Source of the DNA: Patescibacteria group bacterium
GTDB taxonomy: Bacteria; Patescibacteriota; Minisyncoccia; JAHIHE01; JAGLIN01
Assembly: GCA_041670805.1 (NCBI GenBank)
Contig: JBAXYM010000003.1
Span: 16,406-80,405, forward strand
Length of the DNA: 64,000 nucleotides
Direction: 5' to 3'
Shown: in pieces, positions 1,871 through 41,576 of the stretch
Layout: every line of letters begins with the position of its first letter
Numbering within the stretch: position 1 is the first letter of the stretch
The notes under the pieces: model-generated
What the model saw: only the letters and a program-made list of their open reading frames with translations
What the model was told of the DNA's origin: nothing
Databases searched by the model: none
Program-made: the position numbers and the translations under genes

Positions 1871-3718
1871 ATGGGAATTTTAGATGCAATAAAACCGGCG
1901 AAGAAGCTGCTGGGCGCTCCTAAGGCGCAGACCAGTGAGGAAAAAACGGACCTCTTGGAGTCGGAAAAACTTTATCAGCGCGGGCTGGCGACCTTTAAGG
2001 ACATTATCGCGCCGTCCGTCTTTCAAATTACGCCGTCTTATGTGAGGATCAACAACAAGTTGGCTTCCACTCTTTTTGTTTACGCTTATCCTCGTTATTT
2101 GCAGACCAGCTGGTTCTCGCCTATTATCAATTTGGATTCCACTTTCGATGTGGCGATGTTCATTCATCCGCAAAATACCGTCGACGTTTTGAAGCAACTG
2201 CGCAAGGTGGTAACCCGCATACAGTCGCAGATTTCCATCAATGAAGACAAAGGAATGGTGCGCGACCCGGTACTGGAAACCGCTTATCAGGATGTGGAAA
2301 ATTTGCGAGACGATCTGCAGCAGGGCATAGAACATTTTTTTCAATTCGGGCTGTACATCACTCTTTATGGAGACACCGAGGAAGAAGTGCACAAAGCGGA
2401 GTTGCAAGTCGAGGCGATTTTGGAGGCCAAGTTGGTATATATGAAAGATGCGACGATGCAAATGGAGAAAGCTTTTAATTCCACCTTGCCGCTTGCCAAC
2501 GACAAGCTGATGATCGGGAACAATATGAATACCTCTCCCCTTTCCACGACGTTTCCTTTTGTTTCGAGCGATCTTACTTCCAATCAGGGTATTCTGTATG
2601 GCATCAACCGCCATAACAACAGTTTGATACTCTTCGACCGCTTCTCGATGGAAAATGCCAATATGGTGATTTTTGCTAAATCCGGCGCCGGAAAAAGTTA
2701 TATGGTAAAATTGGAAATACTGAGAAGTTTGATGCTCGGCACCGAAGTCATCGCGATTGATCCGGAAAACGAATACAAGCATCTATGCGAAATGACCGGA
2801 GGAACTTTTATGAAAATCTCGCTTTCTTCCAAAAATCACATCAATCCTTTTGACTTGCCGACCGCGCTGGAAGACGAGGATCCGGGAGACGTTCTTCGTT
2901 CGGCCATCGTGAACGTGTCGGGACTGCTGAAGGTGATGCTGGGAGAAATCACTCCGGAAGAGGATTCCATTTTGGACAAAGCAATCACTGAGAGTTATGC
3001 CATTAAAGACATTACCGTCGAATCTGATTTTACAAAGATGGAGCCGCCGACGATGACTGAGCTGCAAATGGTGCTGGAAAATATGGTGGGAGCGGAGAGC
3101 TTGGCTGCGCGGGTCAAAAAATATACGGAAGGAACTTTTGCGGGATTCTTGAATCACAAAACCAACATTGATCCGGATAATAAATTTGTTGTTTTCAATA
3201 TCCGCGACATGGAAGACGATTTGCGGCCGGTGGCGATGTATCTTGTGCTCCACTTTATCTGGAATATGATCCGGTCCGAGAGGAAGAAGCGGATTTTGGT
3301 GGTGGACGAGGCGTGGTGGATGATGCAGCATGAGGATGCCGCCTCTTTCCTCTTCGGAATTGCCAAGCGGTGCCGGAAATATTTTTTGGGACTTACCACT
3401 ATTACGCAGGATGTTACCGATTTTATGGGTTCCAAATACGGCAAACCGATTGTGACCAACTCTTCCATTCAGCTTTTGCTCAAACAATCCCCTGCGGGCA
3501 TCAAAGTGATCGTGGATACGTTCTTCCTGACGGACGAGGAAAAGTTTTTGCTCTTGGAGAGTAATGTCGGAGAAGGGATTTTCTTCGCCGGTCCCAAGCG
3601 TGCGGCAATCAAAATCGTAGCCTCTTATTCCGAGGATCAGATCATCACTTCCGATCCGGCACAGCTCTTGGAAATCGAAAAGGCCAAACAGGAGCTGTCG
3701 GGAGTGGCTGATATGTAA
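1871..3718 (+). CDS. virB4: VirB4/TrbE/TraC-family type IV secretion (conjugation-like) ATPase
   Basis: 615 aa; Walker A MVIFAKSGAGKSYMVK; Walker B RILVVDEAWWMM; N-terminal CagE/TrbE/VirB-type region (FVYAYPRYLQTSWFSPIINLDSTFDVAMFIHPQ). Confidence 0.8.
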   Translation: MGILDAIKPAKKLLGAPKAQTSEEKTDLLESEKLYQRGLATFKDIIAPSVFQITPSYVRINNKLASTLFVYAYPRYLQTSWFSPIINLDSTFDVAMFIHPQNTVDVLKQLRKVVTRIQSQISINEDKGMVRDPVLETAYQDVENLRDDLQQGIEHFFQFGLYITLYGDTEEEVHKAELQVEAILEAKLVYMKDATMQMEKAFNSTLPLANDKLMIGNNMNTSPLSTTFPFVSSDLTSNQGILYGINRHNNSLILFDRFSMENANMVIFAKSGAGKSYMVKLEILRSLMLGTEVIAIDPENEYKHLCEMTGGTFMKISLSSKNHINPFDLPTALEDEDPGDVLRSAIVNVSGLLKVMLGEITPEEDSILDKAITESYAIKDITVESDFTKMEPPTMTELQMVLENMVGAESLAARVKKYTEGTFAGFLNHKTNIDPDNKFVVFNIRDMEDDLRPVAMYLVLHFIWNMIRSERKKRILVVDEAWWMMQHEDAASFLFGIAKRCRKYFLGLTTITQDVTDFMGSKYGKPIVTNSSIQLLLKQSPAGIKVIVDTFFLTDEEKFLLLESNVGEGIFFAGPKRAAIKIVASYSEDQIITSDPAQLLEIEKAKQELSGVADM

Positions 3719-3738
3719 TCTATAGTTTTTGAAATATT

Positions 3739-4809
3739 ATGCCAGAAGGCGAAGAAAAACAACAACAAACAGGAGCAAACAAGACGGCGAAAACATTCGG
3801 GTCGCCTTTTGGTGCGCTTTCGGGCAGTGACAACAGACAGCCGGACCTGAGTTCGGAAGATAAAAATAAAATCGAAGCGAAAGTTTCGGCAAGGACTCTG
3901 GAGAAAAAGGGGGCGTCAAAAAGAGGAGGGGCTTTAGGCGAAACACCCGGGGGCTTTAGGGCGAATGAAGATTTGTCGGACAAGATAAGAACCGACTCAG
4001 CGAGAAGAGGAAACTCCGAAAAAGAGGATGGTATAGCGCAATCGGATACTCAATCAAATTCCACGAATCCGATTTCGGAGGAGCAGTACAACAAAAACCA
4101 AGCGGAAGGAATAATGAATAAACCTCAAAGCGTCAGAAGTGTGCGTGAAGAAATGCAAAAAAGAAATATGCAATCCAATCCGCATCTTTTTCAGCGCCGT
4201 GGGAAAAATGGCGAGGTCGGAATGGGAAGACCGGTGTCTTTTTCCAATTCCAAGGGCATTGGCCCTAATGCGGTTATCGGATCGGAGAATAGGAGGTTGC
4301 CGGAATCCGGAACGTCGAGGACAACATCAGGTGCCATTTCCGGCGGAGGAGCGCAGAGAGCGGAAAATTCCACTGAAAGACGGCGGAAGGAAATGGATCT
4401 CAAGGGGAGAAAAAGGCTGGCTGAAAAATTTAAGACTAGAATGGCATCTTTGCAAGGAGGCCATGAAGAAATCAGCAGCTTTGATTATTTTTTGCTTTTT
4501 ATGATTTTTGCAATTTCGGTGGCAGCGGATATTCTGGATCTGGTTATAGATCTAACCGGCGTAGGCGCTTTTTTTGCTCCCATTATGAGTCTGTTTACGA
4601 CGATTATTTTGGCCATTTTATGGTGGGTGGTTGGCGGAGAGTACCGGGCAAAAAATTTGAAGGGACTGGGTGTCGCGACTTTTGTAGAAGCCATACCTCT
4701 CGTAGATCTTTTGCCAACCAATACTTTCGAGTCCGTTAAAGCTCTCATGCTTATGATAAGCGGTAAAAAAGCAGGGAAAGCGGCAAGTAATGGAAATTCT
4801 TTCTTTTAA
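3739..4809 (+). CDS. Hypothetical protein: low-complexity G/R/S/E-rich N-terminal ~240 aa with a C-terminal multi-TM region
   Basis: 356-aa ORF directly after virB4; C-terminal hydrophobic helices (FLLFMIFAISVAADILDLVIDLTGVGAFFAPIMSLFTTIILAILWWVVGG). Confidence 0.4.
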   Translation: MPEGEEKQQQTGANKTAKTFGSPFGALSGSDNRQPDLSSEDKNKIEAKVSARTLEKKGASKRGGALGETPGGFRANEDLSDKIRTDSARRGNSEKEDGIAQSDTQSNSTNPISEEQYNKNQAEGIMNKPQSVRSVREEMQKRNMQSNPHLFQRRGKNGEVGMGRPVSFSNSKGIGPNAVIGSENRRLPESGTSRTTSGAISGGGAQRAENSTERRRKEMDLKGRKRLAEKFKTRMASLQGGHEEISSFDYFLLFMIFAISVAADILDLVIDLTGVGAFFAPIMSLFTTIILAILWWVVGGEYRAKNLKGLGVATFVEAIPLVDLLPTNTFESVKALMLMISGKKAGKAASNGNSFF

Positions 4810-4975
4810 TCCGCGTCTTTTATGGATGTATGATGGCTACTGGTCCTTATCTGTTTACCGTCGATTTCGCATTGATTTACCGTGTATGATGAACTCAATG
4901 ATGAAGTTAAGAAAAATTTTCTTGATTTCTCAGTGAAGTTATTAAACAGTCAGATTAAAATCTAATAATACGAAA

Positions 4976-6385
4976 ATGAAAAAGAATGCTCTTGCGGTCT
5001 TTTTGGCGATGTCCGTGTTTTGGGCGTCCGGGGTCTATGCCGCCGATACCCCTGCCCCTGTCCCTACCACTACGGGATACGAACCTTTAGTGAAAATTCC
5101 GGGAGTTCCCGATGGAGTCGTGGATATATCAAAATATATCATAGGAATATATGATTTTCTTTTGAGTATTGTCGGAATCGTGGCGGTGGCGATGTTGATT
5201 ATCGGGGGGATGAAATATATTACCGCGGCCGGAAGCGGCGGTGCAGTGTCCAGCGCCAAAGAAACTATCAAGGACGCTCTCTTGGGTCTTGTTTTGGCGC
5301 TGCTTTCCGCCGTAATTGTGAGCACTATCAACCCCGATGTACTTTATTTGCGCCAACCGGGGGCGGCCTTGACGAAGGATAATACAATTTCTTCCAGTGC
5401 CAGCGGGACTTTCACTACTAACCAGGATGGGACTGTCACCTACACCAGCCTTGAAGGGTATGAAAGAAAAATGAGCAAGGAGTCGGCGGATAAGGTGAGG
5501 TCAGGGGAAATAAAAGTTGAGTTTAACGCAAACGAGAAACTTGCGGCGATGAAGAAAAATTTGTCTTGTATCGCTCCCGGTTCTCCTTCCGGCAACAGTG
5601 ATCCCAGTTATAGGCAAAGCGGCGGAAAATGTACTTGTATAACCGGGTATGAGGCTATTTTGCCCGAGGGGCAGACCAACTGTAATGTGGTGTGTGAAAA
5701 TGCAAATGCGTGCGGATATAAATTCATTTCGATCAATCTTAACGCCAGACATGGTTATACCCAAAATGAGAGTTCTAAAGAGGCCGGCGATGCCGTTACC
5801 GACACCGACACCGCTGACAGTTCCGATACGGATACTGTTTCCAATCTTCCTGAATATGATCTGACTAATGATGCCCAAATACACTCCGATGAGTTATTGG
5901 AGATGGAGGGAACCAATGATTCGACTTGGGGGGATTTCAATATTGTTTATGATACAATCGAGAAGAGGCAAAATTTACAAACGGGAAAATGGGAAGAGAT
6001 AAAGCTTGATGCACCTAAGCGATACGTGGAGACCGGTACGGAAATTTATCCTTGCGCCATTTTGGTGACGAATGATAAAGAAAAAAGCAGTGATGATCAA
6101 CATTTTGTTTATTGGGTGCCACTGGGAACGACGGTGGGCGAAAATAACAATCTTTTTGCTGATATTAAGGGCGGATATAGAGGAGGGTGCGAAAAGGATA
6201 AGCCCGGGTATTATAATATCGTTGCAGGGTCTTGTGATCAAGCATGGACGGATCGTGTTATGCTGGCTAAATATTCAGATAAAGTGACGGACAAGTGTAC
6301 GTTTTGTGATTTGGCGGAAGGAGAAGACGAAAAGATTTATCGTTTCGAGAATACATATACTTGCAAAAGCGGTTATTGGCAATAA
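4976..6385 (+). CDS. Pilin-like (VirB2/TrbC-type N-terminal core) protein with a large Cys-rich extracellular C-terminal domain; candidate pilus tip or adhesin
   Basis: Signal peptide MKKNALAVFLAMSVFWASGVYA; pilin-like core IIGGMKYITAAGSGGAVSSAKETIKDALLGLVLALLSAV as in the four small paralogues at 56.6-58.3 kb; ~330-aa C-terminal domain with more than 20 Cys. Confidence 0.45.
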   Translation: MKKNALAVFLAMSVFWASGVYAADTPAPVPTTTGYEPLVKIPGVPDGVVDISKYIIGIYDFLLSIVGIVAVAMLIIGGMKYITAAGSGGAVSSAKETIKDALLGLVLALLSAVIVSTINPDVLYLRQPGAALTKDNTISSSASGTFTTNQDGTVTYTSLEGYERKMSKESADKVRSGEIKVEFNANEKLAAMKKNLSCIAPGSPSGNSDPSYRQSGGKCTCITGYEAILPEGQTNCNVVCENANACGYKFISINLNARHGYTQNESSKEAGDAVTDTDTADSSDTDTVSNLPEYDLTNDAQIHSDELLEMEGTNDSTWGDFNIVYDTIEKRQNLQTGKWEEIKLDAPKRYVETGTEIYPCAILVTNDKEKSSDDQHFVYWVPLGTTVGENNNLFADIKGGYRGGCEKDKPGYYNIVAGSCDQAWTDRVMLAKYSDKVTDKCTFCDLAEGEDEKIYRFENTYTCKSGYWQ

Positions 6386-6950: not shown

Positions 6951-7074
6951 ATTGAAGGTTAGGAACAGGGAAGATGGTCCCGAAAGACCGGTTTTGGTAG
7001 AAAATTTTTGCCCATCGAACGCTTGCGGAAGAGGAGGAGACTCACCTAGCTATTCGGCAATATATGATTTTCCA

Positions 7075-7380
7075 AATCACACAAACAGTGCTGCCTCGCT
7101 CTGACGTAGTTCGTTGTATTTTGAATTATGGATTTTGAATTTATGGACCACATCAGAAATGATGTGAACCAAGCAAGGCAAAACGTTCTTGCGTAACATT
7201 CCACACCATCTCTGGTGTGGTCCGGATGCAAGAATGCATTTCTGGATTTCGAATTGTGAATTTCCGTATTTCGGATCACATCAGAAATGATGTGAACCAC
7301 GCGGGAGAGAACGTTCTTGCGTAACACTTCACACCATTTCTGGTGTGATCCGAATGCAAAGATGGCGTCTATTGTAAACA
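7075..7380. repeat. Two tandem IRE units (~100-nt inverted-repeat element family) plus flanking att-remnant region
   Basis: Units at ~7146-7233 and ~7272-7360: ggaYcacatcagaaatgatgtgaacc-(loop with AGAACGTTCT palindrome)-cacaccatYtctggtgtgRtcc; ORF 7046..7384 is a translation of this repeat. Confidence 0.7.
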
Positions 7381-7496
7381 CCACATTTTGCGTATGAGCG
7401 ATTTACCCTGCCAAGCATAAACTTCTCATCCCTCCTAAATGCGGAAGAGGAGGGATTTACCCGGCAGCGGGCATAAACTTCTCATCCCTCCTAAAT

Positions 7497-7622
7497 GCGG
7501 TGTAATCGGGTTAAGTACCCGTAACTTACAGTCAGTATAAGGCTTTTTAGGCGGTTTGGCTAGAAGGGGTTTTGAGGTACTCGGGTCGGGGTCTGAAATG
7601 GCAAAATGAGACAAATGAGACA
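7497..7622. repeat. ~126-bp direct repeat X (copy 1), left end of island A; second copy at 27593-27718 (~88% identity)
   Basis: gcggtgtaatcgggttaagtacccgtaacttacagtcagtataaggc...ggtcggggtctgaaatggcaaaatgagacaaatgagaca; a tRNA-Ser 3' fragment gcggaagaggagggatt sits at 7441-7457 just outside it. Confidence 0.7.
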
Positions 7623-7974
7623 CTTTTAGTAGTTTTCAAATGTGTCCGATTAACCTATTTTTCCTCTATGATTAGCCGAAAAATTAGCGAGACACGATAA
7701 AAAACTGTGTCTCAATCATTATTGAATTTGCGTCTCCGAACAGAATCTGATAGTTAACTAAAAGTCCTAGCTTTAGTAAAAATTTCCGTTTCTTGACTAT
7801 TTTGCATTCTTGTTCTAAATTATAAGGATTATCTAATATTTAAAGTCTAGACTCATAGTTTTCGTATAACTAAGCCTATAGCCTGGACTTTATCCCCCAT
7901 GTTATTAAGATAAAGTCTAGGTATAAACAAAAAGGAGCTAGATAACCACGATACCCCCGAAAAATGTACTCGTA

Positions 7975-8667
7975 TTGTTTTCTGGAGGAAAAGATTCTTT
8001 TCTTGCAACATGCAACCTGGCAGAAAGAGGCTTTAAAGTATATATGGTTACATTTGAAAACGGAGCTGGGCTAGGATCAAACAATGTCGAACACGGTGCC
8101 AAAAGGATTATTGCGCATTATGGAAAAGATAAGGCTGAATTCCTCGGCGTACAATGTACCGCGGGAATATGGCGAGAGTTTTTCCTGCCATATCTAAATA
8201 TGAAGCCAAGCGAAGTAATCAAGGAATATGGCGAATTGACCGTCTCGCAATTTAACTGCCTAACATGCAGATCAGCAATGTATATCTGGTCTATTATTAA
8301 GGCAAAAGAAAAAGGAATAAATTACATTGCAGACGGGGCTCGAAAAGATCAGGGATTTGTGATAGAATTACCCTGTATGATAGAGAAATTCAAAGAACTC
8401 ATGTCCGAATTCTCTATTGAACTTTTACTGCCCGTATGGGATTTAAATTCCGGCTGGGAACAAAAAAATCTTTTATTGAGAAGAGGATTCATCCCAAAAA
8501 CGCTGGAATCACAGTGCTTGCTTGGAGCTCCGCTACCAGAGGACAAACAACCGGAAGAGGAAATACAACAAGCGGTAGCAAGATATTTTGAAAAAGTTAT
8601 CTTACCAAGAGCGAGGAATTTAATCTCTTCTGAGTTAGAAATCAGACTAGGAGGAAAAAATGAGTAA
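7975..8667 (+). CDS. PP-loop ATP pyrophosphatase family protein (TtcA/TtuA/Dph6/DndC/QueC-like N-type ATPase)
   Basis: 230 aa; N-terminal PP-loop VLFSGGKDSFLA (SGGKDS), downstream Cys pairs (NCLTCRS); first gene after the island-A boundary. Confidence 0.6.
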   Translation: MFSGGKDSFLATCNLAERGFKVYMVTFENGAGLGSNNVEHGAKRIIAHYGKDKAEFLGVQCTAGIWREFFLPYLNMKPSEVIKEYGELTVSQFNCLTCRSAMYIWSIIKAKEKGINYIADGARKDQGFVIELPCMIEKFKELMSEFSIELLLPVWDLNSGWEQKNLLLRRGFIPKTLESQCLLGAPLPEDKQPEEEIQQAVARYFEKVILPRARNLISSELEIRLGGKNE

Positions 8668-9244
8668 AACAAAAACACAGACACAGGACAAAAGGAGCAG
8701 GAAATTTATTTTTATTCCTTTCTGTGTACTTTGCCAAGCCTTTCAGGCTCAAGGTATTGTCAGATATGATTTTTCTTCCGTAATGACTGACATTATAGAA
8801 GAAATAATGAAGCACGATCTGAATATAATTCAAATGCCTTGCCCCGAAAGCAAGCTGGGGGGATATAAAAACGGGTTGCAAAGACTTCCGCAAAGCATTA
8901 AAAAATATGATACTCCTGAATTCAGAGAAATTTGTATGAACTGCGCATCGGAGGTTATGGAGCAGATTAAAGCAATCCTAGAAAATGGATATGAAATAGC
9001 AGGTATTTTGGGAATAGAAAACTCTCCTTCATGTTCAATAAAATTGCAATATTCTAACAATGGTGCGTATCGTCAGCCGGGTATTTTTATTGAGGAATTA
9101 AAGAAACAACTTGAGCGAGATGGCATAGAGATTCCCTTACTAGGCATAAACCGAAGAGGAGTAGAAATAACATTAGTCAGGCTGAAACAGATGCTCGATA
9201 CAGATCAGGTATCTGTACAGCAAAAGAATTTGAATGAATTTTAA
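8660..9244 (+). CDS. DUF523/TudS-like [4Fe-4S] protein (divergent paralogue)
   Basis: 194 aa; FCVLCQAF and IQMPCPESKLGG motifs paralogous to the CPE motif of the next gene; start overlaps the PP-loop gene stop. Confidence 0.4.
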   Translation: MSKTKTQTQDKRSRKFIFIPFCVLCQAFQAQGIVRYDFSSVMTDIIEEIMKHDLNIIQMPCPESKLGGYKNGLQRLPQSIKKYDTPEFREICMNCASEVMEQIKAILENGYEIAGILGIENSPSCSIKLQYSNNGAYRQPGIFIEELKKQLERDGIEIPLLGINRRGVEITLVRLKQMLDTDQVSVQQKNLNEF

Positions 9245-9295
9245 TTGCTAACATTATTTTTTGTTAGCTTTTTTATTTTATAATTTCCAACCAAT

Positions 9296-9745
9296 ATGAA
9301 ACTTATCAGCGCCTGCCTGTGCGGAATAAACTGCGCATGGAATGGAAAATCAAAAATTTCCCCAAAGATACTTGAACTTGTAAAATCCGGAGAATTTATT
9401 CCTGTATGTCCGGAACAGCTTGGCGGGCTAAGCACTCCCAGAATTCCGCAAGAAATACAAGGCGGATCGGGGGAAGATGTTTTGGCGGGGAAGTGCAAAG
9501 TTATAAACAAAGAAGGAAAAGACGTAACCGCCCAATTCGTGAGAGGGGCGGAGGAAACATTGAAAATCGCAAAGCTCACGGGAGCGAAAAAATTTATTGC
9601 CAAATCAAAAAGCCCTTCCTGCGGCTGCGGCTTCACTTATGACGGAACTTTTTCCGGCACGCTGATTGAAGGTGACGGCGTTACCACGGCGCTCTTGAAG
9701 CGGAATGGAATAAAGGTGATAAGCAGCGAAAATATCGAGGGATAA
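9296..9745 (+). CDS. DUF523 family protein (2-thiouracil desulfidase TudS-like, Cys-ligated Fe-S cluster)
   Basis: 149 aa; LISACLCGINCAWNG ... FIPVCPEQLGGLSTPRIP ... KSPSCGCG conserved Cys pattern typical of DUF523. Confidence 0.55.
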   Translation: MKLISACLCGINCAWNGKSKISPKILELVKSGEFIPVCPEQLGGLSTPRIPQEIQGGSGEDVLAGKCKVINKEGKDVTAQFVRGAEETLKIAKLTGAKKFIAKSKSPSCGCGFTYDGTFSGTLIEGDGVTTALLKRNGIKVISSENIEG

Positions 9746-10086
9746 TCTTATCATAAAAATTAGATCCCATACGATAAAATTTTTATATATTTATTTCTGA
9801 TACTTATAAAGCAATGAATATCTAAATCTGAATTGTTTTTTCTTAACACAGTTTTTTTACATTGTGAATTACCCTGTGTGTCCTATGGACAACACAGGGA
9901 GTTCTTACTTCTTAAAAACAAATCATAAGACTCGCGGATGCAGTTTCTTAGCTAAGCAGGATAAAATGTTGAGGGCTGTCTTTTGGATATGGATATGTTA
10001 ACATTTTTATAATCTGTTTATAATTTATACAAAGAGTTTATTTGGTAATCATAGTAAAATATTCGCAAATATGCTAAATTAATGGC

Positions 10087-10722
10087 ATGGAACAACAAAT
10101 ATCTAGACGAACAGTCAAACAATGCTTGCCAGTTATTAATGCAGTGTATGCCTTTTTCGAAGTGCAAATAGTGGCATATGAGAACTTGGAAAAGAAAGAT
10201 GAGCTGTGCTTTTTTCATTTGGAAAAAGATTTCGGCATTCCCAAGCTATTAAGCGTAGGATATATCTTCGGCGAATGGCTAGAAGGATCAGATTTTATCT
10301 GCAATAAACTCTGCATCGTTAAAACAAATAAAAAGGCTAAGTGGCTTGATTTTATCAGATTGCTTGATAAAAAGATTAATGGGTACAAAGTTGATACTAA
10401 CATTATAGAAATATCTCTTGCATCGAATGGGATGATTTTCAGAAATATCAATGGAATGCGATATAGTTACGATTTTAAAAACGACGGCTTGAAGAAAAGA
10501 ATAATTGCTTTCCTCGCCGAGCAGAATGATTTCGTGCAAACAGCAGCTATCCAAAAATATGTTAAATCTACAAATGTAAAATCTTTTTCAGATGCTGTCG
10601 GGCAGATTAATTCCATTATGGAACAGAAATTGAAGCTACCTAAGGCGCAGAATTTAATCAAAAGCAAACGTGGCTCTGGTTATAGAATTAACCCGCTATA
10701 CAATATCATTTTGACCGATTAA
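10087..10722 (+). CDS. Hypothetical protein with a C-terminal OmpR/PhoB-type winged-helix-like motif
   Basis: 211 aa; C-terminal KSKRGSGYRINPLY resembles the wing of Trans_reg_C domains; no receiver domain. Confidence 0.3.
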   Translation: MEQQISRRTVKQCLPVINAVYAFFEVQIVAYENLEKKDELCFFHLEKDFGIPKLLSVGYIFGEWLEGSDFICNKLCIVKTNKKAKWLDFIRLLDKKINGYKVDTNIIEISLASNGMIFRNINGMRYSYDFKNDGLKKRIIAFLAEQNDFVQTAAIQKYVKSTNVKSFSDAVGQINSIMEQKLKLPKAQNLIKSKRGSGYRINPLYNIILTD

Positions 10723-10865
10723 CCAACACCTTTGCATCTCCAGTGGATAAGTATAAAAAATACCTTTATTTAAGAGGTATTTTTTGATGGCTGATGGAGA
10801 TGTGATGGATATAAATTATTTAAAATATATCCCATAATTTTGATATAAGCCTAAGTATAATTTAT

Positions 10866-12146
10866 ATGTCTACAAAACAAAGGTTAGAATGGCACACTGA
10901 AAAATGTTCGGTGGCAGAACTTATCCCCAATGACGAAAATCCCCGTGTAATGAGCCAGAAACAAATCGAGGATTTGAAAAGGAGTCTGCAAAAATTTAAT
11001 TTGGTTGAGATTCCTGTTATAGATACCGACAAAAAGGTGCTGGCAGGCCATCAAAGATTGATGGTGCTCAAATTGTTAGGACGAGAAAACGAGGTCATTG
11101 AAGTTAGAGTGCCGAATCGTAAATTGAGCCAGAGAGAATACGACCAATATTTACTTACGAGCAATCGTGTCCACGGTGATTGGGATTGGGAGAAGTTGGT
11201 ACAAAACTTCGATCTTGACCTCTTGGCTATTAGCGGGTTCGATGAAAATGATTTATCGCATCTCTTTGAAGACTTAACAGTAGAAGATGATGAATTTGAT
11301 GTTGAAGTGGAACTGGAAAAGATTAAAAAACCGAAGGCCAGGCTAGGAGATATTTATTTGCTTGGCAATCATAAATTAATTTGCGCAGATAGCACCGATC
11401 CTGAAACAGTCAAAAAACTATTTGGCAAAAACAAAGCGGATATGATTTACCAGGATCCGCCATACAACATCGGCCTGAATTACAACAAAGGGATTGGCGG
11501 CAAACAGCATTACGGCGGCACGGTTAATGATTCTAAAAGTGAGACCGAGTATAAAGAGTTTCTTGGAAAATCTTTGCAAAACGGACTTTTAGTCTGCAAG
11601 CCCGATGTCCATATCTTTACTTATTGCGACCAATCATATATATGGCTGTTTCAAATTCTTTATCAAGAATTGGGTATTCAAAATAGAAGAGTCTGCTTGT
11701 GGGTAAAGAATAGTTCCACGCCTACACCGCAAATAGCCTTTAATAAGCAATACGAACCTTGTGTTTACGGCACAATCGGCAGTCCTTTTCTTGCCGATAA
11801 AGTACTCAACTTATCAGAGATTATGAATAAAGAAATTGGCACAGGCAATCGCACACTGGAGGACATATATGATATGATCGATATTTGGCTTGTCAGAAAA
11901 CTGAGTGGCTCTGACTATCAACACCCAACCGAGAAGCCACCTATGCTTCATGAAAAAGCTTTGCGAAGGTGTTCCAAACCGGGCGATATTATCCTTGATT
12001 TATTTGCTGGTTCTGGGAGCCTGTTGATAGCTTGCGAACAATTAAAACGGTCTGCGTACTTGGTCGAACGCGAACCAGTATTTGTTGATTTAATAATTCA
12101 AAGATATGAGAAACTCACAGGAAACAAATCCAGAAAAATCTCTTAA
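10866..12146 (+). CDS. ParB-like nuclease domain fused to a beta-class N6/N4 DNA methyltransferase (phage/ICE-type orphan MTase)
   Basis: 426 aa; N-terminal ParB-N fold (ELIPNDENPRV...LAGHQRL); MTase motif IV IYQDPPYNIG precedes motif I DLFAGSGSLLIA; ~50% identical paralogue at 29378-30646. Confidence 0.75.
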   Translation: MSTKQRLEWHTEKCSVAELIPNDENPRVMSQKQIEDLKRSLQKFNLVEIPVIDTDKKVLAGHQRLMVLKLLGRENEVIEVRVPNRKLSQREYDQYLLTSNRVHGDWDWEKLVQNFDLDLLAISGFDENDLSHLFEDLTVEDDEFDVEVELEKIKKPKARLGDIYLLGNHKLICADSTDPETVKKLFGKNKADMIYQDPPYNIGLNYNKGIGGKQHYGGTVNDSKSETEYKEFLGKSLQNGLLVCKPDVHIFTYCDQSYIWLFQILYQELGIQNRRVCLWVKNSSTPTPQIAFNKQYEPCVYGTIGSPFLADKVLNLSEIMNKEIGTGNRTLEDIYDMIDIWLVRKLSGSDYQHPTEKPPMLHEKALRRCSKPGDIILDLFAGSGSLLIACEQLKRSAYLVEREPVFVDLIIQRYEKLTGNKSRKIS

Positions 12147-12891
12147 ACACGGCCAGATTTGGCAACTAGGCGATCATAAGTTGCTCTGCGGCAGTTCGTT
12201 GGATTCCGAGCTGGTGCAAAAGCTCCTTGCGGGTTCAAAAATAAATTCCATTATCACTGATCCGCCTTATGGCATTAGCTTTGTCGAGAGCAAAAAAAAT
12301 TTTTCTAAGGTAAAAGTGAACAAGAGAATTCTCAACGATAATATTTCCTCAGAGAAAGAATACTGCGAATTTACAAAGCAGTGGCTAAAAATTCCCTTGC
12401 TTTACCTAGCCAAGAAAAATAGCATTTATATCTTCAACTGTGATAAAATGCTCTTTGCCTTAAAAAAGGCGCTTGACGAACTTGATGTTTATTTCTCGCA
12501 ATTAATTATTTGGGTAAAGAATCATGCCGTAATCGGGCGTAAAGACTATCTGCCTCAGCATGAATTGATTTTATTCGGTTGGTTTGGCGCTCATGCTTTT
12601 AAGCGAAGTAAGGACAAATCTGTTTTGTTTTATCCAAAACCGAATAAGAGCAGTTTGCATCCTACCACCAAACCCATGGAATTAATCAGTCATTTAATAT
12701 TAAATTCTACCGATATCGGCGATACTATCTATGATTGCTTTGGTGGTTCGGGCACTTGCCTAATATCAGCCGAACTAACTAAAAGGCGCTGTCTAATGGT
12801 CGAGTATGACTTAGAATATTGTGCAATTATTATGAAGCGCTGGGCACATATAACTAAACAAGAAATTAAATTAATTTATGAAGAAGAATGA
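12106..12891 (+). CDS. DNA methyltransferase (beta-class N6A/N4C), second MTase of the module
   Basis: 261 aa; ITDPPYGISF then DCFGGSGTCLISAE; start overlaps the upstream gene (translational coupling). Confidence 0.7.
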   Translation: MRNSQETNPEKSLKHGQIWQLGDHKLLCGSSLDSELVQKLLAGSKINSIITDPPYGISFVESKKNFSKVKVNKRILNDNISSEKEYCEFTKQWLKIPLLYLAKKNSIYIFNCDKMLFALKKALDELDVYFSQLIIWVKNHAVIGRKDYLPQHELILFGWFGAHAFKRSKDKSVLFYPKPNKSSLHPTTKPMELISHLILNSTDIGDTIYDCFGGSGTCLISAELTKRRCLMVEYDLEYCAIIMKRWAHITKQEIKLIYEEE

Positions 12892-13297
12892 TCAAAACAA
12901 AAAATTATTGCTTGAACAGCTGAGCAAAACACCAATTATTCAAATTGCTTGCGAAAAACTGGGGATTGCCCGTCCGACTTTTTATCGCTGGAAAGCGCAG
13001 GATAAGGAATTCGGTAGGCAGGTCGATGAAGCAATCAGAGGCGGTAGATTGCTGGTTAACGACTTAGCTGAAAGCCAATTAATTAGTGCCGTCAAAGACA
13101 GAAATATCCAGGCCGTTATGTACTGGCTTAAACATCATCACGTGGATTATAGGAATCGTCTGGAAATTGACGGAAACATAAATACCAGCCAAGAATTATC
13201 ACTTGAACAACAAACATTAATTAAGAAAGCCCTTGAGTTTGCTTCCTTTGACCTAGAGCAGAAACAAGATATTAAAACCAATGAAAACGATAGCTGA
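12878..13297 (+). CDS. HTH protein, terminase small subunit-like
   Basis: 139 aa; IACEKLGIARPTFYRWKAQDKEF HTH; directly upstream of and overlapping the TerL-like gene; paralogue at 31389-31898. Confidence 0.4.
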   Translation: MKKNDQNKKLLLEQLSKTPIIQIACEKLGIARPTFYRWKAQDKEFGRQVDEAIRGGRLLVNDLAESQLISAVKDRNIQAVMYWLKHHHVDYRNRLEIDGNINTSQELSLEQQTLIKKALEFASFDLEQKQDIKTNENDS

Positions 13298-14714
13298 ACA
13301 AACCTACGAGTTGATGTCCGATATTATTAGGGATAAAGATATTCGTACCAAAGTAGCCACCGAAAGCCACTATTGGTTTTTTCATATTTATTTTCATCAT
13401 TATGTTAAATATCCAACCGCTGATTTTCAGAGAGAACTATTTGCTATTACCCAAAGCGATAATATCAGCACGGCTGTCATTGTAAGTTTTCGCGGTTCGG
13501 CCAAATCAACTATCATGACTATGTCATATCCAATCTGGTCAATTCTAGGCAAACAACAGAAGAAGTTTGTTATAATTATCAGCCAAACCCAGTATCAGGC
13601 CAGGATGCATTTAAGCAATTTGAAGCGGGAGCTGGAAAGTAATCGACTATTGCGCTCCGAACTGGGGCCATTCGAAGAAAAGAATGAAGAATGGGGTTCT
13701 ACTTCGTTGGTAATTCCTAAATTCAATGCCCGTATTACCGCCGCTTCTTGTGAACAAAGTGTGAGAGGCCTGCGGCATGGAGCCAACCGTCCCGACCTTA
13801 TAGTCTGCGATGATGTCGAAGATTTAAATTCAGTTAAAACGCGGGAAGGGCGTGATAAAACTTATAATTGGCTGACGGGAGAAGTAATTCCTTCCGGTGA
13901 TCGGAGCACTAAAGTGGTTGTTGTCGGCAATTTATTACATGAAGACAGTTTGCTGATGCGGCTTAAGGCCAATATTGAAGAGAATAAATTAAATGGTATT
14001 TTTAGAGCTTATCCTCTGACTGATCATCGAGACCAAACAAATTGGCCTGGCAAATTTCCTACCAAGGAATTGATTGATTTGGAGAAAATGAAAGTAGGCA
14101 ATGAAATTTCTTGGCAAAGAGAATATTTATTGAGAATTGTACCTAATATCGGACAGGTCGTGCACAGGGAATGGATTCATTATTATGATGTGCTTCCACA
14201 ATCTTCTGAACATTATACATCCACGGTTAGTGGTGTTGATCTGGCTATCTCCAAAAAAGATACCGCGGATTGTACAGCCATTGTGTCAGCCAAAGTTTAT
14301 TCCATTGACGATAGTTTTAAACTTTATATCTTGCCTAATCCGATCAATGAAAAAATGGAATTTCCAGATATGATTAGAAAAATAAAGGCATTAGAAACTG
14401 TTCTTGGCTACAGTATGATATATGTTGAAGATGTCGCTTTTCAAGCTTCTTTGTATCAGCAATTAATTGAAAAAGGAATTCCTGCTGAAGGGGTAAAAAT
14501 ACATGGTCAGGATAAATTATCTCGATTGACGCTAACCACTGCTCTAATCCAATCCGGAAAAATTATTTTCCCTCGAAAGGGCACTGAAAGGCTAATTGAA
14601 CAAATGCTTAACTTTGGAATCGATAAGCACGATGATTTAGTCGATGCTTTCACTTTATTAGTACTAAAGGTTGCAAATAACAATTACAGTATGCCAAGAG
14701 TCGTTTTGCTTTAA
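13281..14714 (+). CDS. Phage terminase large subunit-like ATPase/nuclease
   Basis: 477 aa; Walker A SFRGSAKSTIM, Walker B LIVCDDVEDL, C-terminal RNaseH-like nuclease signature GVDLAISKKDTADCTAIV ... IDKHDDLVDAF. Confidence 0.55.
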   Translation: MKTIAEQTYELMSDIIRDKDIRTKVATESHYWFFHIYFHHYVKYPTADFQRELFAITQSDNISTAVIVSFRGSAKSTIMTMSYPIWSILGKQQKKFVIIISQTQYQARMHLSNLKRELESNRLLRSELGPFEEKNEEWGSTSLVIPKFNARITAASCEQSVRGLRHGANRPDLIVCDDVEDLNSVKTREGRDKTYNWLTGEVIPSGDRSTKVVVVGNLLHEDSLLMRLKANIEENKLNGIFRAYPLTDHRDQTNWPGKFPTKELIDLEKMKVGNEISWQREYLLRIVPNIGQVVHREWIHYYDVLPQSSEHYTSTVSGVDLAISKKDTADCTAIVSAKVYSIDDSFKLYILPNPINEKMEFPDMIRKIKALETVLGYSMIYVEDVAFQASLYQQLIEKGIPAEGVKIHGQDKLSRLTLTTALIQSGKIIFPRKGTERLIEQMLNFGIDKHDDLVDAFTLLVLKVANNNYSMPRVVLL

Positions 14715-14802
14715 GAGAATAGCTAATCCAATATTCTCAGTTCAATTTGATTTAAGCTATCTGATTTAGCATAGACAGCATGATGAGTTTTTGTCTATCT
14801 AA

Positions 14803-17430
14803 TTACAAAACTATTTCAGATATAGAAGCTGATTTACTTTTATCTAGAGAATTTGCTTTTATAAACAATTCTATGGCCTCTTTCTCGCTTTTGTCTGACC
14901 AAGCTTTATCTCCTAATTCAGCCAAACATACACTGAATTTATCTGGATTGTAGGCGATCTTAAAATCATTATACTGGAAATATTTTTCCTTTTTATAGTC
15001 TAGTCCTTCTTTCACAAAATGCTTCAAGAAGAAGCCAGTATCTCTCGGATTTTTTCTAAATGTTTTTATGAGGTAATCAGTTACTTCCTCATTACGATCT
15101 CTATCTTCGTCGCTCCAATCAACCGCCCATTGAAAGAGAATAATGGCGAACTCGTTATATTTTTTATACTGTGTAAAAACATTCCTATTTTCCTTAATAA
15201 AATATTTTTTTAATCGTTTTTTGATGATATTTTTTAGTTCTTCATGATTAATATTCTGATGAATTCTATATAAACTGCTGCTTCGACCCTCACTGCAAGA
15301 AAGAACTACCGTAGAAACAAAATCCAAACGTTCTGTTCGTTGAATAATTTCCTTTAAAATCCCTTGAATCTGGTTTTCTTCTATTTTCTTATTGTCTTCC
15401 AATAACCGAAAAATTAATCCGTATGCTTGATTATATTCGTTGTCCCACAAATCTCCACTTTGCATAAATCTGTTACAATTTTGATAAATAACTCTAATCA
15501 ATGTTAGGGCAATCTCTTTGTTAACCTCTTTTGCATACAACTTAAGAAGGTGCAAAAGATCAATTAGTTTTAATTCTTTTTGGTATTTTTCAAAAAACGA
15601 TATTTTGATGTCATTTTCTAAATTATCAGAAAGCTTCCATGCTTTGAGTATGTCATCAAATTCAGAATCAGATATTACGTTTTCACGCACTCCTAATGTA
15701 AAATATTTATAAAAACAATCCGGGTGAGCTATTCTCCTTTTAATTCTGTACTCTTCGACCAAACCTCCATAGCTGTTATTATCAAATGCATTTTTTATCT
15801 CTGGAAAAATATCCTCCAGCAAAGATATAATTATTTTATTATTTTGTGTAATTATTTCTATATGACTCTTTATAGTTTCTCTTTTTTCTCTATCATCATA
15901 TGGCAGGTAAGTATATGCTCTAAGCTCCAAAGACCAAGGAGAGACATAAAACCACCAGTTTTTTCTTATATCATTATATATATCTGGAAAGAAAGTATGA
16001 AAGATTTCTAAAATGAAAAAATCGTATAAGTGTATTTCACGTTCTATAAACGGCAACCTAAAGAAGATACTATTAAGATAACGTTTAGCGGCTCTATATG
16101 TGGGGAAAAATGGTTTTAAATTAGATTGATAAGTTTTTGTAAACTCTTCATCAAACTCCTTTCTTCTAATGCTATCGATCTTGATACCATCAAAAAATTT
16201 ATCAATTTCTGATATGCGTCCGGAATCTGGATATGAAAATAGTAGAAAGTCATCAATCTTTCTATGATCAGTCGATGGCAAATATATCGGCAATTGAATG
16301 ATTTTTTCAACATAATTCACAGGATCGCCTATCTCCTTGTTATTTTGTAAAATTGAAGATACTATCGAAGGGTCAAAACAAAGTAAAAAGACCATATTAT
16401 TCATACGGCTTGTTAGTTTTACAAGCCGGAATACAGCTAGAATCTCATTAGCCTGAAGACGATCAACATCGTCTATAATAACTAAAACTCTCTTGTCTAG
16501 TGAAGCTACAAATTTTTCAATTTTTTCCTTGAGCTTCAACGGTCGATCTTCGGTATTATTATGTAACTGTAAAGATAAATTTGCAAAACCCTTGATTAAT
16601 ACCTCTGGATAGAAATTAAGATAATTCTTCACTTTGTTAGGCACTAAATACTTTTCTTCTAACAACTTCTCTAATCCATGATAAAAGTTCACCGTTAAAG
16701 CATCTTTTTCTCCGAAGAACCAAGGATCAAATTCATAAACTAGCAGTTGTTGGTCATTTTCCAGCTCTCTCTTAAGTAAGTTTAAGACAGATGTTTTACC
16801 TTCCCCCCAACATCCATATAGACCCATGACGAATGATTCTTTAAAAGATAATTTATAAATGTTATCTTTTAATGCATCGGCGAATCTCTTTCTTCCAATT
16901 AGGTCATTGCCATTATCGTTTATCGGCTCATCTGTTAACAGCTTTGTTTGTTCGCCAAGACTATCTATCAATTGATTTTCTATTTTTTTCTCTTTGATTG
17001 TAGACAATAGAGCCTTCAGATATGTTGCTAAAGCAAAAAATATTATAGGGAATAAGACAACTCGAAAGCAAGGTAAATCTAGAAAATGTTTTGATAATAA
17101 CCACCATATGCCTAAAAAACTGACTAAAGACAAACTATCAACAGCAGAAAACTGTGGTTGTTTTATGAAATAAGATTCTCGGTATTTGCGCCAAATTGAA
17201 ATGCCTTTTTTCCAAACGGCTCCAAATATTACTAACTCAAATAATATAATATATTGTGGTGCAGGCAAAAATGGAATAATACTATCAAAAAAATCTTTTA
17301 TATTTGATTGAAAAATTCCAGCAATCCAAAAAAGAAACATACCTGCTGCCGATGAAAGCAGTAAGTCATTAAAATTTATTTGAATATAATTTAAGAGTGC
17401 TACAATTTCTTTGTTTAGGAAATATTTCAT
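14803..17430 (-). CDS. KAP-family P-loop NTPase with four N-terminal transmembrane helices
   Basis: 875 aa; P-loop GLYGCWGEGKTSVLNLL; Walker B-like VLVIIDDVDRL; N-terminal TM segments; adjacent to the type III R-M pair. Confidence 0.55.
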   Translation of the reverse strand: MKYFLNKEIVALLNYIQINFNDLLLSSAAGMFLFWIAGIFQSNIKDFFDSIIPFLPAPQYIILFELVIFGAVWKKGISIWRKYRESYFIKQPQFSAVDSLSLVSFLGIWWLLSKHFLDLPCFRVVLFPIIFFALATYLKALLSTIKEKKIENQLIDSLGEQTKLLTDEPINDNGNDLIGRKRFADALKDNIYKLSFKESFVMGLYGCWGEGKTSVLNLLKRELENDQQLLVYEFDPWFFGEKDALTVNFYHGLEKLLEEKYLVPNKVKNYLNFYPEVLIKGFANLSLQLHNNTEDRPLKLKEKIEKFVASLDKRVLVIIDDVDRLQANEILAVFRLVKLTSRMNNMVFLLCFDPSIVSSILQNNKEIGDPVNYVEKIIQLPIYLPSTDHRKIDDFLLFSYPDSGRISEIDKFFDGIKIDSIRRKEFDEEFTKTYQSNLKPFFPTYRAAKRYLNSIFFRLPFIEREIHLYDFFILEIFHTFFPDIYNDIRKNWWFYVSPWSLELRAYTYLPYDDREKRETIKSHIEIITQNNKIIISLLEDIFPEIKNAFDNNSYGGLVEEYRIKRRIAHPDCFYKYFTLGVRENVISDSEFDDILKAWKLSDNLENDIKISFFEKYQKELKLIDLLHLLKLYAKEVNKEIALTLIRVIYQNCNRFMQSGDLWDNEYNQAYGLIFRLLEDNKKIEENQIQGILKEIIQRTERLDFVSTVVLSCSEGRSSSLYRIHQNINHEELKNIIKKRLKKYFIKENRNVFTQYKKYNEFAIILFQWAVDWSDEDRDRNEEVTDYLIKTFRKNPRDTGFFLKHFVKEGLDYKKEKYFQYNDFKIAYNPDKFSVCLAELGDKAWSDKSEKEAIELFIKANSLDKSKSASISEIVL

Positions 17431-17434
17431 TTTA

Positions 17435-21470: not shown

Positions 21471-21691
21471 ATATTTTAATTTTCATCATTGTTAATTTTT
21501 CAATAATAGTTTTTACAACCTATTAGAAATCGGTATTAAACTATCGTTACTTTACCTCTTTTTACGCTAAAAGTAAAGAAAAATTGGCAATTCCATATCG
21601 TTTAGAAGACTTAAGTTATCAACAGCTAGTAGTCTGGACGCCCCGCGTGCTATGTGTCATTCATTGTAGTGTAATAAATAAGGGAAAATGT

Positions 21692-27543: not shown

Positions 27544-27718
27544 CACCCAACAAAATCTGGGTATTCGGGTCTATCCGATACTAAATTGTCTTGGCGGTGT
27601 AAGTGGGTTAAGTACCCATAGCTTACAATCAGTGTAAGGCTTTTCAGGCAGTTTGACTAGAAGCGGTTTTGAGGTACTTGGGTCGGGGTCTAAAATGCAG
27701 AATGAGACAAATGAGACA
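27544..27718. repeat. Junction of islands A and B: ~54-bp repeat Y (duplicate of the tRNA-Ser 3' end plus downstream flank and dyad hairpin) directly followed by repeat X copy 2
   Basis: 27553-27596 ctgggtattcgggtctatccgatactaaattgtcttggcgg matches 47869-47912; 27593-27718 matches 7497-7622. Confidence 0.7.
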
Positions 27719-27748
27719 GTATAAAAATAAATATGTTCTTGTCTCATT

Positions 27749-28807: not shown

Positions 28808-29377
28808 ATAAAAATAAGATTATTTTAAATATTTTATCATATAACTGATTATAAAGAAATAATCAGTCGTATAGCTGATTTTAGGTGCTTATATGAGAAG
28901 CAAGACGAGGCAAAGAAGACATAATATATTGTAAGGATTGCAAACATATGTTTCGTCTCATTTGACACAATATTTCCATATGTGATATATTATTAATACA
29001 ATTTAATAAACCTGTATCTCTCTAAGACAAAAGAGGGCGAATAAAATTTATGTTAGAACCTTGTTCAAAAAACTACATAAATAATATTCATTGTTCTATT
29101 TTGTTTGAGATAGAATTTCATTTCAGTTTTGAGGCAGTGCCACAAAAATCAAAACAAGGATGATTATTCGGATGGATTTCTAATGCTCTATATGTTCTTA
29201 TCGGGTCCTTTGACCAAAAAGGATAAGACATATATCAAGGTTATAAATCGAAGGAAATAAACAAGCTTATGCTGTTTGTTGCTTTTGATTCATAACCTTT
29301 TTTGATTAAGCAATACCCAGCTAACTTGCAGCTGGGTATTTTATTGTCCAGCAAAACTAATAAAATAATCAATACTT

Positions 29378-31370: not shown

Positions 31371-31388
31371 CATGTTAACCGAAATTTT

Positions 31389-31898
31389 ATGAACTCAGAT
31401 AAAACTAAGATTACATCGCTGAAGGATCTTAAGGAGAAACAAAAAAAGGAAATAGTGGAAGAGCTTAGAAAGACGCCCATCGTACAATATGCTTGTCAAA
31501 AATATAATGTTCCCAGATCCACCTTCTACAGATGGATGAAGAGCAGCAAGAAATTCAAGAAAGAAGTAAAGGCTGCTTTAACCGATGGATGTGATTTGAT
31601 TAATGACCTAGCAATATCTCAGCTCATTGGCAAGATAAAGAATGGTGACAATACAATGATAATCTTCTGGCTCAAATGTAAGCATCCTGACTTCCTCGAT
31701 GTAAGGCGCATTAATCATGTGATTACAGAAAGAAAAGAAAATCCAATGACCCCGGAGAAAAAGGCGCAAATTGCAAAAGCATTAAGGGGATGGCAATTGG
31801 GCAGAGAAGAGTTAAAATATCTAGCTCATAAATATGCTACGTTGCCCTCAGAGAAATCAGGGGAAAAAGAATCACGGGATAAAGATGAACAGTGTTAA
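31389..31898 (+). CDS. HTH protein, terminase small subunit-like (island B paralogue)
   Basis: 169 aa; YACQKYNVPRSTFYRWMKSSKKF; homologous to 12878-13297; no TerL follows. Confidence 0.4.
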   Translation: MNSDKTKITSLKDLKEKQKKEIVEELRKTPIVQYACQKYNVPRSTFYRWMKSSKKFKKEVKAALTDGCDLINDLAISQLIGKIKNGDNTMIIFWLKCKHPDFLDVRRINHVITERKENPMTPEKKAQIAKALRGWQLGREELKYLAHKYATLPSEKSGEKESRDKDEQC

Positions 31899-31906
31899 GC
31901 GGATTA

Positions 31907-41566: not shown

Positions 41567-41576
41567 ATTTAATAAG

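Follow-up and report, generated by a model that had tools for sequence, protein, structure and literature searches.

A YcfA-like PP-loop protein paired with a TudS-fold protein on a patescibacterial mobile element: a candidate nucleotide-thiolation system

What could a PP-loop ATPase gene, followed by two TudS-like (DUF523) genes, be doing in the mobile DNA of a minimal-genome bacterium? The question is raised by positions 7975-9745 of a 64,000-nucleotide (nt) stretch, called here the window, which is read on the forward strand of contig JBAXYM010000003.1 (positions 16,406 to 80,405; assembly GCA_041670805.1) from a Patescibacteria group bacterium. A first-pass annotation had reported three genes in this segment, and the listing of open reading frames (ORFs) agrees, giving three on the plus strand, together with the following features:

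7975-8667, plus strand: gene 1 (ORF1), 230 amino acids (aa), TTG start, YcfA-like PP-loop ATP pyrophosphatase, predicted nucleotide thioamide synthase
7981-7998, plus strand: SGGKDS motif of gene 1, whose ORF1 protein opens MFSGGKDS
8257-8259, 8266-8268 and 8515-8517, plus strand: codons of the gene 1 cysteine triad (C106, C109 and C192 in the family alignment)
8660-9244, plus strand: gene 2 (ORF2), 194 aa, TudS fold, CD3072-like predicted [4Fe-4S] protein, with predicted cluster cysteines C22, C61 and C125, predicted catalytic residues E63, S122 and S124, and an extra conserved C92
9247-9268, followed by a T-run to 9278, plus strand: terminator-like hairpin directly 3′ of gene 2 (consensus scan only)
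9296-9745, plus strand: gene 3 (ORF3), 149 aa, homologue of canonical TudS-type thiouracil/4-thio-UMP desulfidases

The answer preferred here, tentatively and at somewhat less than even confidence, is that genes 1 and 2 form an iron-sulfur (Fe-S)-dependent system thiolating free nucleotides, similar to YcfA-YcfC with a TudS-like protein in the place of the pyridoxal phosphate (PLP) lyase. The component superfamilies are already known; what is new is the conserved, sometimes fused pairing and a YcfA-like enzyme with a cysteine triad. A literature search found no description of DUF7411, of the CD3072 family or of a PP-loop/TudS pairing.

A YcfA-like enzyme and its TudS-fold partner

Searches of profile libraries with gene 1 return only sub-threshold matches to its N-terminus (DUF7411, ThiI, QueC, Dph6 and QatC), hence it is not a recognisable housekeeping PP-loop enzyme. 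The QueC profiles score 15.2 against a cutoff of 22 (PF06508) and 12.9 against 150 (TIGR00364), the QatC profile 11.8 bits against 280, and the QueC model of PADLOC matches the N-terminus only (E 0.004). Gene 1 gives no match to PF01507, the DndC/SspD type, at E<=0.1, nor to Pfam ATP_bind_3 and tRNA_Me_trans, and no Dnd or Ssp partner genes are present among the window ORFs scanned. Assignments to QueC, ThiI, DUF7411, Dph6 or argininosuccinate synthase were considered and rejected, each resting on the PP-loop N-terminus at scores under the cutoffs.

YcfA of Erwinia amylovora is the sole solved structure that matches gene 1 beyond the PP-loop (phmmer E 1.7e-5; E 1.9e-15 across 184 residues with the family profile), ThiI being the second-best fold match. 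Gene 1 combines an SGGxDS PP-loop with a YcfA fold that extends past the PP-loop core, and the earlier affiliation to the TtcA, TtuA, DndC and QueC families gives way to this nearest relative, whose substrate is free GTP. The YcfA reaction begins with adenylation of GTP at the C6 carbonyl and, in concert with the PLP lyase YcfC, leads to 6-thio-GTP; the order of preference is GTP > GDP > GMP (PMC12494993). The YcfA residues D19, Q129, E134 and E183, involved in ATP binding and catalysis, align to invariant residues in the close family of gene 1, as do the triphosphate anchors R18, K169 and K180. Among 243 wider members, YcfA-equivalent positions are conserved in the majority: K175 is lysine in 167, K186 is lysine in 184 and E189 is glutamate in 222.

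The most conserved feature of the family is the cysteine triad, which is better preserved than parts of the PP-loop itself (C106 in 241, C109 in 240 and C192 in 238 of the 243 members). Its CxxC opens a helix ahead of the 'DGAR.DQ' strand and the third cysteine follows 83 residues further. The same CxxC...C arrangement characterises the [4Fe-4S] PP-loop tRNA thiolases (TtuA/TtcA/NcsA), although neither a match to their profiles nor their zinc-finger and RNA-binding modules were found in gene 1, and the protein of about 240 aa has no RNA-binding domain. In PP-loop sulfurtransferases (TtuA, TtcA, CxxC-C MnmA, M. maripaludis ThiI and LarE), CxxC-C motifs bind a [4Fe-4S] cluster or a persulfide (PMC8584467). 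Judged from its sequence, gene 1 thus looks like a base-carbonyl thiolase, YcfA-like and equipped with a CxxC...C triad.

Gene 2 has TudS as its top fold match. It keeps the equivalents of TudS Cys10, Cys43, Cys104, Glu45, Ser101, Ser103, Pro102 and Tyr110, that is, the three cluster cysteines and the catalytic residue set listed in PMC10611767. Across 163 members, C22, C61, C125, E63 and S122 are invariant and S124 is found in 153; the position of TudS Arg17/Tyr18, which contact the phosphate and the base, is occupied by an R/K-aromatic pair (R or K in 162 of 163). Features beyond those of TudS are a helical insertion of about 30 residues, in which a fourth cysteine (C92) is conserved in 160 of 163 members, and a helix at the C-terminus. 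The PF04463 score of gene 2 is below the cutoff (23.9 bits against 34.7), and that for NCBIfam NF045597, the CD3072 family, just under it (123.6 against 130). Gene 3 scores far above the PF04463 cutoff (150.7 bits), matches TudS 6z92 at E 2e-24, and conserves the three cluster cysteines, Glu45, Ser101 and Ser103, with Ala replacing Arg17. Hence, of the two paralogous DUF523 proteins proposed earlier, gene 3 is one by profile, whereas gene 2 shares the TudS fold at a sub-cutoff score and is only 25% identical to gene 3. TudS, which had been taken for the only characterised DUF523 member, has a second characterised relative, RudS (PMC11417400).

The two TudS-fold genes also differ in their relation to gene 1. 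An 8-nt overlap joins ORF1 to ORF2, and a GGAGG stands at 8650-8654, whereas ORF2 and ORF3 are separated by a 51-nt gap that contains the terminator-like hairpin and T-run; therefore only ORF2 is translationally coupled to ORF1, and the coupling of both genes suggested by the first-pass annotation holds for one of them. In a scan of one genome per species over 185,579 species, the gene 1 family occurs at 39 loci, all in metagenome-assembled genomes (MAGs) and spanning Patescibacteria, DPANN and other archaea, Clostridia, Bacilli/Mycoplasmatota, Bipolaricaulota, Bacteroidota and one gammaproteobacterium; a further copy of the cassette, in a Zixibacteria genome, was located separately. The family is small, with 588 relatives of gene 1 at E<=1e-3 in a representative library of 1.84 billion proteins. 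In 36 of the 39 species loci, gene 1 is directly followed, usually with an overlap, by a gene 2 homologue; in one locus (L009) the homologue lies upstream instead. Gene 2 is thus a conserved, "obligate" partner of gene 1, and the conditions under which the association would have been dismissed, namely a housekeeping PP-loop enzyme with unlinked DUF523 genes, do not describe this family. Only patescibacterial copies of the pair come with gene 3 (L002, L004, L005, L008, a fragment in L013, and the window); it is a lineage-specific, separately transcribed accessory and not the second partner that it had been taken for.

The association extends to fusions. P0362 joins a PP-loop domain to a C-terminal TudS-related domain (hhalign 98%, E 2.3e-13), and P0389, 33% identical to it, has the same domain order and a PP-loop domain that keeps the YcfA-like YQxxWPEQ motif. 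A third candidate, P0036 (404 aa), was discarded as its N-terminal extension turned out to be unrelated. Relatives of gene 1 are also fused to NUDIX domains in both orientations (P0297 and P0375, one N-terminal and one C-terminal). About ten diverged relatives (P0313, P0321, P0325, P0328, P0330, P0347, P0356, P0326, P0354 and P0252) carry an unannotated N-terminal domain of about 165 aa, with the consensus start 'KLIIKYKDKY...' and no Pfam match.

Free nucleotides and the competing readings

The neighbourhoods of the pair offer no consistent third partner, since neighbour clustering and a Pfam scan of 100 flanking proteins gave 142 Pfam families, none of them in more than three proteins. Many settings are mobile or conflict-related. 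The Zixibacteria locus contains two tyrosine integrases. In a Tn916-like island, present in 141 data blocks, gene 1 is accompanied by Abi_alpha, GmrSD, a Dcm methyltransferase and a guanylate-kinase-like gene (L043-L045, 6424-7014; PF00625, 36 bits; TTRxPRxxGExxG), which overlaps the start of the PP-loop gene and is limited to this one island lineage, in gut Firmicutes. Elsewhere the pair is found with a transposase, type IIG restriction-modification, a DUF87 ATPase, ParE or HNH, with a serine recombinase accompanied by ParB and Fic, or with HEPN and a nucleotidyltransferase. The fusion P0362 is the first gene of an operon of four overlapping genes (L062 307-5095), the others encoding an uncharacterised 360-aa protein, an HD-domain protein of 427 aa and an N6_N4 DNA methyltransferase, and NT5C, HD-domain and NTPase_I-T genes lie near some gene 1 loci. 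Other settings concern sulfur and RNA modification: four Clostridium MAGs have the order sufB-sufD-sufS-sufU-pair-mnmA, a TRAM/U5-methyltransferase (RumA-like) gene is directly upstream in at least six loci of several Bacilli and Mycoplasmatota, and a QueH-like gene is upstream in L028 and L029 (CCAPCS motif seen in the translation, not profile-scanned). An identical gene 2 protein, P0236, occurs in both types of context. The earlier description of the trio as mobile-island cargo, away from tRNA-modification genes, is thus correct for the window but does not extend to the suf-mnmA loci.

Several of these observations point to a free nucleotide as the substrate, namely the NUDIX fusions, the guanylate-kinase-like linkage, the NT5C, HD and NTPase_I-T neighbours and the lack of an RNA-binding domain, and the insertion between sufB-sufD-sufS-sufU and mnmA adds a sulfur context. 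In the proposed mechanism, gene 1 would spend ATP on adenylating a carbonyl in the base of a nucleoside phosphate, by analogy with YcfA at C6 of GTP, an alternative target being C4 of a uridine nucleotide, and the base oxygen would then be exchanged for sulfur. The triad would hold this sulfur as a [4Fe-4S]-bound hydrosulfide or a persulfide, comparable to TtuA-, TtcA- and MnmA-type thiolases. Gene 2, present in a fixed ratio with gene 1, would handle sulfur at a TudS-type [4Fe-4S] site with one open iron, and could either deliver or process sulfur for gene 1 in the place of YcfC, or remove it from the monophosphate form, thereby recycling and bounding the thio-nucleotide pool. Fusion and fixed stoichiometry speak for a complex or a common catalytic cycle, and are compatible with gene 2 either donating or removing sulfur. 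Gene 3 would be an ordinary TudS desulfidase added in Patescibacteria. The product may be a thiopurine- or thiopyrimidine-type antimetabolite, or a modified precursor. It is a doubtful, more specific suggestion that the mobile element uses the pair to make and control such a nucleotide, either to harm phages or competitors as an antimetabolite or to supply its own nucleic acid with a thio-base precursor. The coupled or fused TudS-like protein would then be a built-in sulfur donor or immunity enzyme, and the scheme would imply a new Fe-S-to-Fe-S sulfur hand-off between a desulfidase fold and a PP-loop thiolase.

Several points weigh against a YcfA-like thiolation of free nucleotides. A thiolase and an intact desulfidase site acting on the same molecule would constitute a futile cycle. 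However, YcfA-type enzymes prefer triphosphates, and their anchors are kept in gene 1, whereas TudS prefers the monophosphate, and its phosphate-binding Arg is kept in gene 2, so separate nucleotide forms are possible and synthesis and clean-up may take place on different phosphorylation states. Q137, E142 and K175 vary outside the closest clade, in a minority of the 243 members. The position of YcfA Tyr128, in the L-cysteine site, is D, S, G or C in the gene 1 family, and no YcfC-like PLP enzyme is adjacent, the sole aminotransferase-class neighbour being SufS at the four Clostridium loci; the sulfur chemistry must therefore differ from that of YcfA. Gene 1 also occurs without gene 2, in L024 and L030 (where translation with genetic code 4 recovered no gene 2), in the P0101 clade, in which it stands beside toxin-antitoxin genes (NT5C, Phd/YoeB, HEPN and Dam neighbours), and in the phage-like contigs L046 and L047. 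Conversely, lone gene 2-like proteins exist, for example one following secA. The state of gene 1 in the window, described below, is a further difficulty.

A different substrate would make the two genes a tRNA or rRNA thiolation and de-thiolation pair, in which gene 1 would be a minimal s4U/s2U/s2C thiolase and gene 2 a RudS/TudS-like eraser or recycler, a housekeeping-type system sometimes carried by mobile elements. The Clostridium position between sufSU and mnmA, the TRAM/U5-methyltransferase and QueH-like genes upstream, the weak Pfam matches and second-best fold match to ThiI and the central place of s4U in TudS/RudS biology (PMC10611767, PMC11417400) are all consistent with it. It is nevertheless thought unlikely: the conserved triphosphate-anchoring lysines, the NUDIX fusions and the kinase linkage indicate free nucleotides, the neighbours are otherwise heterogeneous, and the family is rare and patchy. 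Distinctly unlikely is an enzymatic toxin-antitoxin or abortive-infection pair, in which gene 1 would poison the cell by forming a thio-nucleotide or by thiolating nucleic acid, gene 2 would continuously undo the reaction, and loss of the element or interference by a phage would free the toxin. DarT-DarG follows a comparable logic. The predicted chemistries are opposite and the genes overlap; copies are scattered sporadically over phyla and domains, their DNA being 65-76% identical within the cassette only; many copies sit in islands with integrases or recombinases, restriction-modification, GmrSD, Abi_alpha, ParE, YoeB or HEPN; six of the 39 copies are truncated or frameshifted; and 6-thioguanine nucleotides are known antimetabolites (PMC12494993). 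On the other hand, PADLOC finds no significant match of genes 1-3 to known anti-phage systems, the pair occurs in housekeeping suf-mnmA contexts, and gene 1 stands alone in cellular genomes (L024, L030 and the P0101 clade), which would be lethal for an unregulated toxin. The existence of stable fusions is a weaker objection, as some toxin-antitoxin pairs are also fused.

Of the functions first suggested for this locus, DNA modification, anti-restriction or defence, none is demonstrated by the present results, and thio-base modification of the element's own DNA for anti-restriction, directly or through a modified deoxynucleoside triphosphate (dNTP) precursor, is given a low probability. In the window the cassette is closely followed by ParB-methyltransferase, methyltransferase, TerS and TerL genes, gene 1 lies beside DNA methyltransferases in phage-like contigs, and the P0362 operon contains both an HD-domain protein and an N6_N4 DNA methyltransferase; yet DNA methyltransferases are common in any mobile island. 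The guanylate-kinase-like linkage resembles phage routes to modified dNTPs, but neither a transglycosylase nor a dedicated polymerase or dNTPase shows consistent linkage. A phage origin was also considered and rejected: a tblastn search found no match among 50,697 phage genome records, IMG/VR gave a single distant match (L048, 26% identity, no gene 2 nearby), and PHROGs matched a QueC-like N-terminus only. Natural thio-bases in DNA are, to our knowledge, unreported. It is more improbable still that gene 1 is not a thiolase and adenylates its substrate for ammonia or another nucleophile, in the style of QueC, NAD synthetase or Dph6, with cysteines binding structural zinc and with gene 2 as an Fe-S protein of unrelated role. 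The PP-loop superfamily is chemically diverse, gene 1 has weak matches to QueC, Dph6 and argininosuccinate synthase, and the cysteines of QueC bind zinc. However, the spacing and position of the triad are typical of thiolases, the gene 2 partner retains a complete TudS desulfidase site, and the best relative, YcfA, is a thioamide synthase.

Enzymes of base sulfuration and desulfuration have hitherto been studied apart; here a thiolase-like PP-loop enzyme and a desulfidase-fold, predicted Fe-S protein are paired, sometimes fused, and the pair has spread horizontally through Patescibacteria, DPANN archaea, Firmicutes and other groups. Understanding the pair could reveal a second way to thioamide nucleotides, based on Fe-S and of the chemistry that underlies 6-thioguanine, and could provide a test of whether the [4Fe-5S] state of the TudS fold can donate sulfur and not just accept it, or add a new class of nucleotide-based conflict or salvage systems in minimal-genome organisms.

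The window copy and its mobile element

Compared with the copies of Saccharibacteria (L004) and Moranbacteria (L005), genes 1-3 have pN values of 0.08-0.21 and pS values of 0.68-0.84, synonymous sites being saturated, hence they are real genes under constraint. A protein identical to ORF1 is present in the database, annotated as hypothetical protein, from a Patescibacteria MAG. The beginning of gene 1 is nevertheless unusual in the window:

7942-7974, plus strand: in-frame 5′ extension of gene 1, encoding the beta-1 strand KNVLVL that is found in all homologues

The frame is open from 7942 (ITTIPPKNVLVLFSGGKDS) and has no ATG, GTG or TTG ahead of 7975, whereas homologues are 238-244 aa long and start about 10 codons earlier than the TTG at 7975. 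Alignment to L005 and L013 reveals a deletion of about 11 nt, which took out the gene 1 ATG behind an AAAGGAG ribosome-binding site. Initiation at TTG 7975 would leave the protein without its first beta strand, so the window copy, lacking a canonical start for the full-length protein, may have low expression or be decaying.

In BLASTN comparisons the window resembles all other loci, the archaeal and Zixibacteria copies included, over 7960-9723 only (65-76% identity). The similarity ends at the cassette edges, which indicates that the cassette moves as a unit. It has been transferred horizontally and is here the cargo of a serine-recombinase element. The GC content of 0.43-0.48 drops to 0.28-0.40 between about 7 and 48 kb, delimiting a low-GC, defence-rich region of about 40 kb with the following landmarks:

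7441-7457: 17-bp direct repeat (GCGGAAGAGGAGGGATT) of the tRNA-Ser 3′ end, att-like left boundary, exact match to 47909-47925
7497-7622: left-end repeat of 126 nt, whose second copy (27594-27718, 89% identity) heads a sister element
21584-23014, plus strand: large serine recombinase, right end of the cassette-carrying element
47907-47996, minus strand: tRNA-Ser(CGA) gene, 3′ end duplicated at 7441-7457

Within this region are two tandem, related elements of about 15.5-16 kb, one with the cassette (7497-23014) and its sister (27594-43651), each closed by a recombinase (21584-23014 and 42332-43651, 92% aa identity). These two large serine recombinases are the only ones found in the region, which has no tyrosine integrase. 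Both elements carry ParB-methyltransferase, methyltransferase and TerS genes (39-55% aa identity), and a TerL-like gene (13281-14714) is found in the first element only. The cassette occupies a slot beside the left end of the first element, which in the sister element is taken by an unrelated 352-aa gene. The two elements look like phage-satellite or packaging-competent islands.

Repeats are frequent around the left boundary. A partial 13-bp copy of the tRNA-Ser repeat lies at 7025-7037, and a perfect 30-nt repeat occurs at 7415-7444 and 7471-7500. Two direct repeats of about 122 nt (7115-7364, 80% identical, spacing 128 nt), containing 27-nt inverted repeats, sit just outside the att-like repeat in the otherwise non-coding segment 6400-7440. 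Upstream type IV secretion system genes (1871-6385) are outside the low-GC region. Further features of the region and its right flank are:

14803-17430, minus strand: KAP-family P-loop NTPase, 875 aa, matched by PADLOC as PifA (E 5e-59)
17435-19840 and 19746-21470: Res helicase and Mod methyltransferase of a type III restriction-modification system beside the KAP NTPase
32875-33005, minus strand: LOOT RNA (RF03000, 63.7 bits against a gathering threshold of 46.4), in the second element between genes of unknown function encoding 299 and 367 aa
34766-37174, minus strand: AAA_13 ATPase, 802 aa, candidate defence gene, no named system matched
37376-41566, minus strand: superfamily-1 helicase, 1396 aa, with a C-terminal MTES_1575/DUF559 endonuclease domain, candidate defence gene, likewise matched to no named system
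45229-45834, minus strand: LexA-like S24 repressor
46210-47791, plus strand: overlapping DUF6791-ThiF (E1-like) and DUF6527 genes, directly beside the tRNA-Ser gene
48158-51799, minus strand: ORF of 1213 aa outside the island, with an AT skew of -0.43 to -0.51 at 49000-52000; composition of the protein probably unusual or repetitive

Comparison with known systems

The closest known counterpart is YcfA-YcfC (PDB 9kq6, PMC12494993), with which gene 1 has in common the ATP and nucleotide residues D19, Q129, E134, E183, R18, K169 and K180 (YcfA numbering). Both are two-gene systems in which the second protein is given to the sulfur step, and the free-nucleotide substrate of YcfA would be matched by that suggested for the gene 1 family by its NUDIX fusions and kinase linkage. 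However, the two PP-loop proteins share only 22% identity and YcfA lacks the near-invariant CxxC...C triad. YcfC is a PLP C-S lyase, whereas gene 2 is a TudS-fold, predicted [4Fe-4S] protein, and YcfA-YcfC belongs to a virulence cluster of a plant pathogen while the gene 1 family is found in anaerobes and mobile elements.

With respect to TudS and RudS, DUF523 [4Fe-4S] desulfidases of thiouracil, 4-thio-UMP and tRNA-s4U (PDB 6z92/6z96), gene 3 is a straightforward homologue, apart from the replacement of the phosphate-binding Arg17 by Ala, and gene 2 has all cluster cysteines and catalytic residues. Gene 2 departs from them in its helical insertion, C92, C-terminal helix and sub-cutoff PF04463 score, and in being linked, sometimes fused, to a PP-loop enzyme, which is not reported for TudS or RudS.

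QatC of QatABCD and Cap9 of type IV CBASS match gene 1 in the PP-loop region only, far under the cutoffs; their cysteine pattern differs, and gene 1 has no QatABD or CD-NTase partners. The [4Fe-4S] PP-loop thiolases (TtuA, TtcA, NcsA/Ctu1, M. maripaludis ThiI and CxxC-C MnmA) and CxxC-C LarE combine SGGxDS with CxxC...C in the same way as gene 1, and use adenylation followed by attack of a cluster-bound or persulfide sulfur (PMC8584467). They act on tRNA, or in the case of LarE on a nicotinate cofactor, and carry zinc-finger, THUMP or RNA-binding modules, in contrast to gene 1, which is without them.

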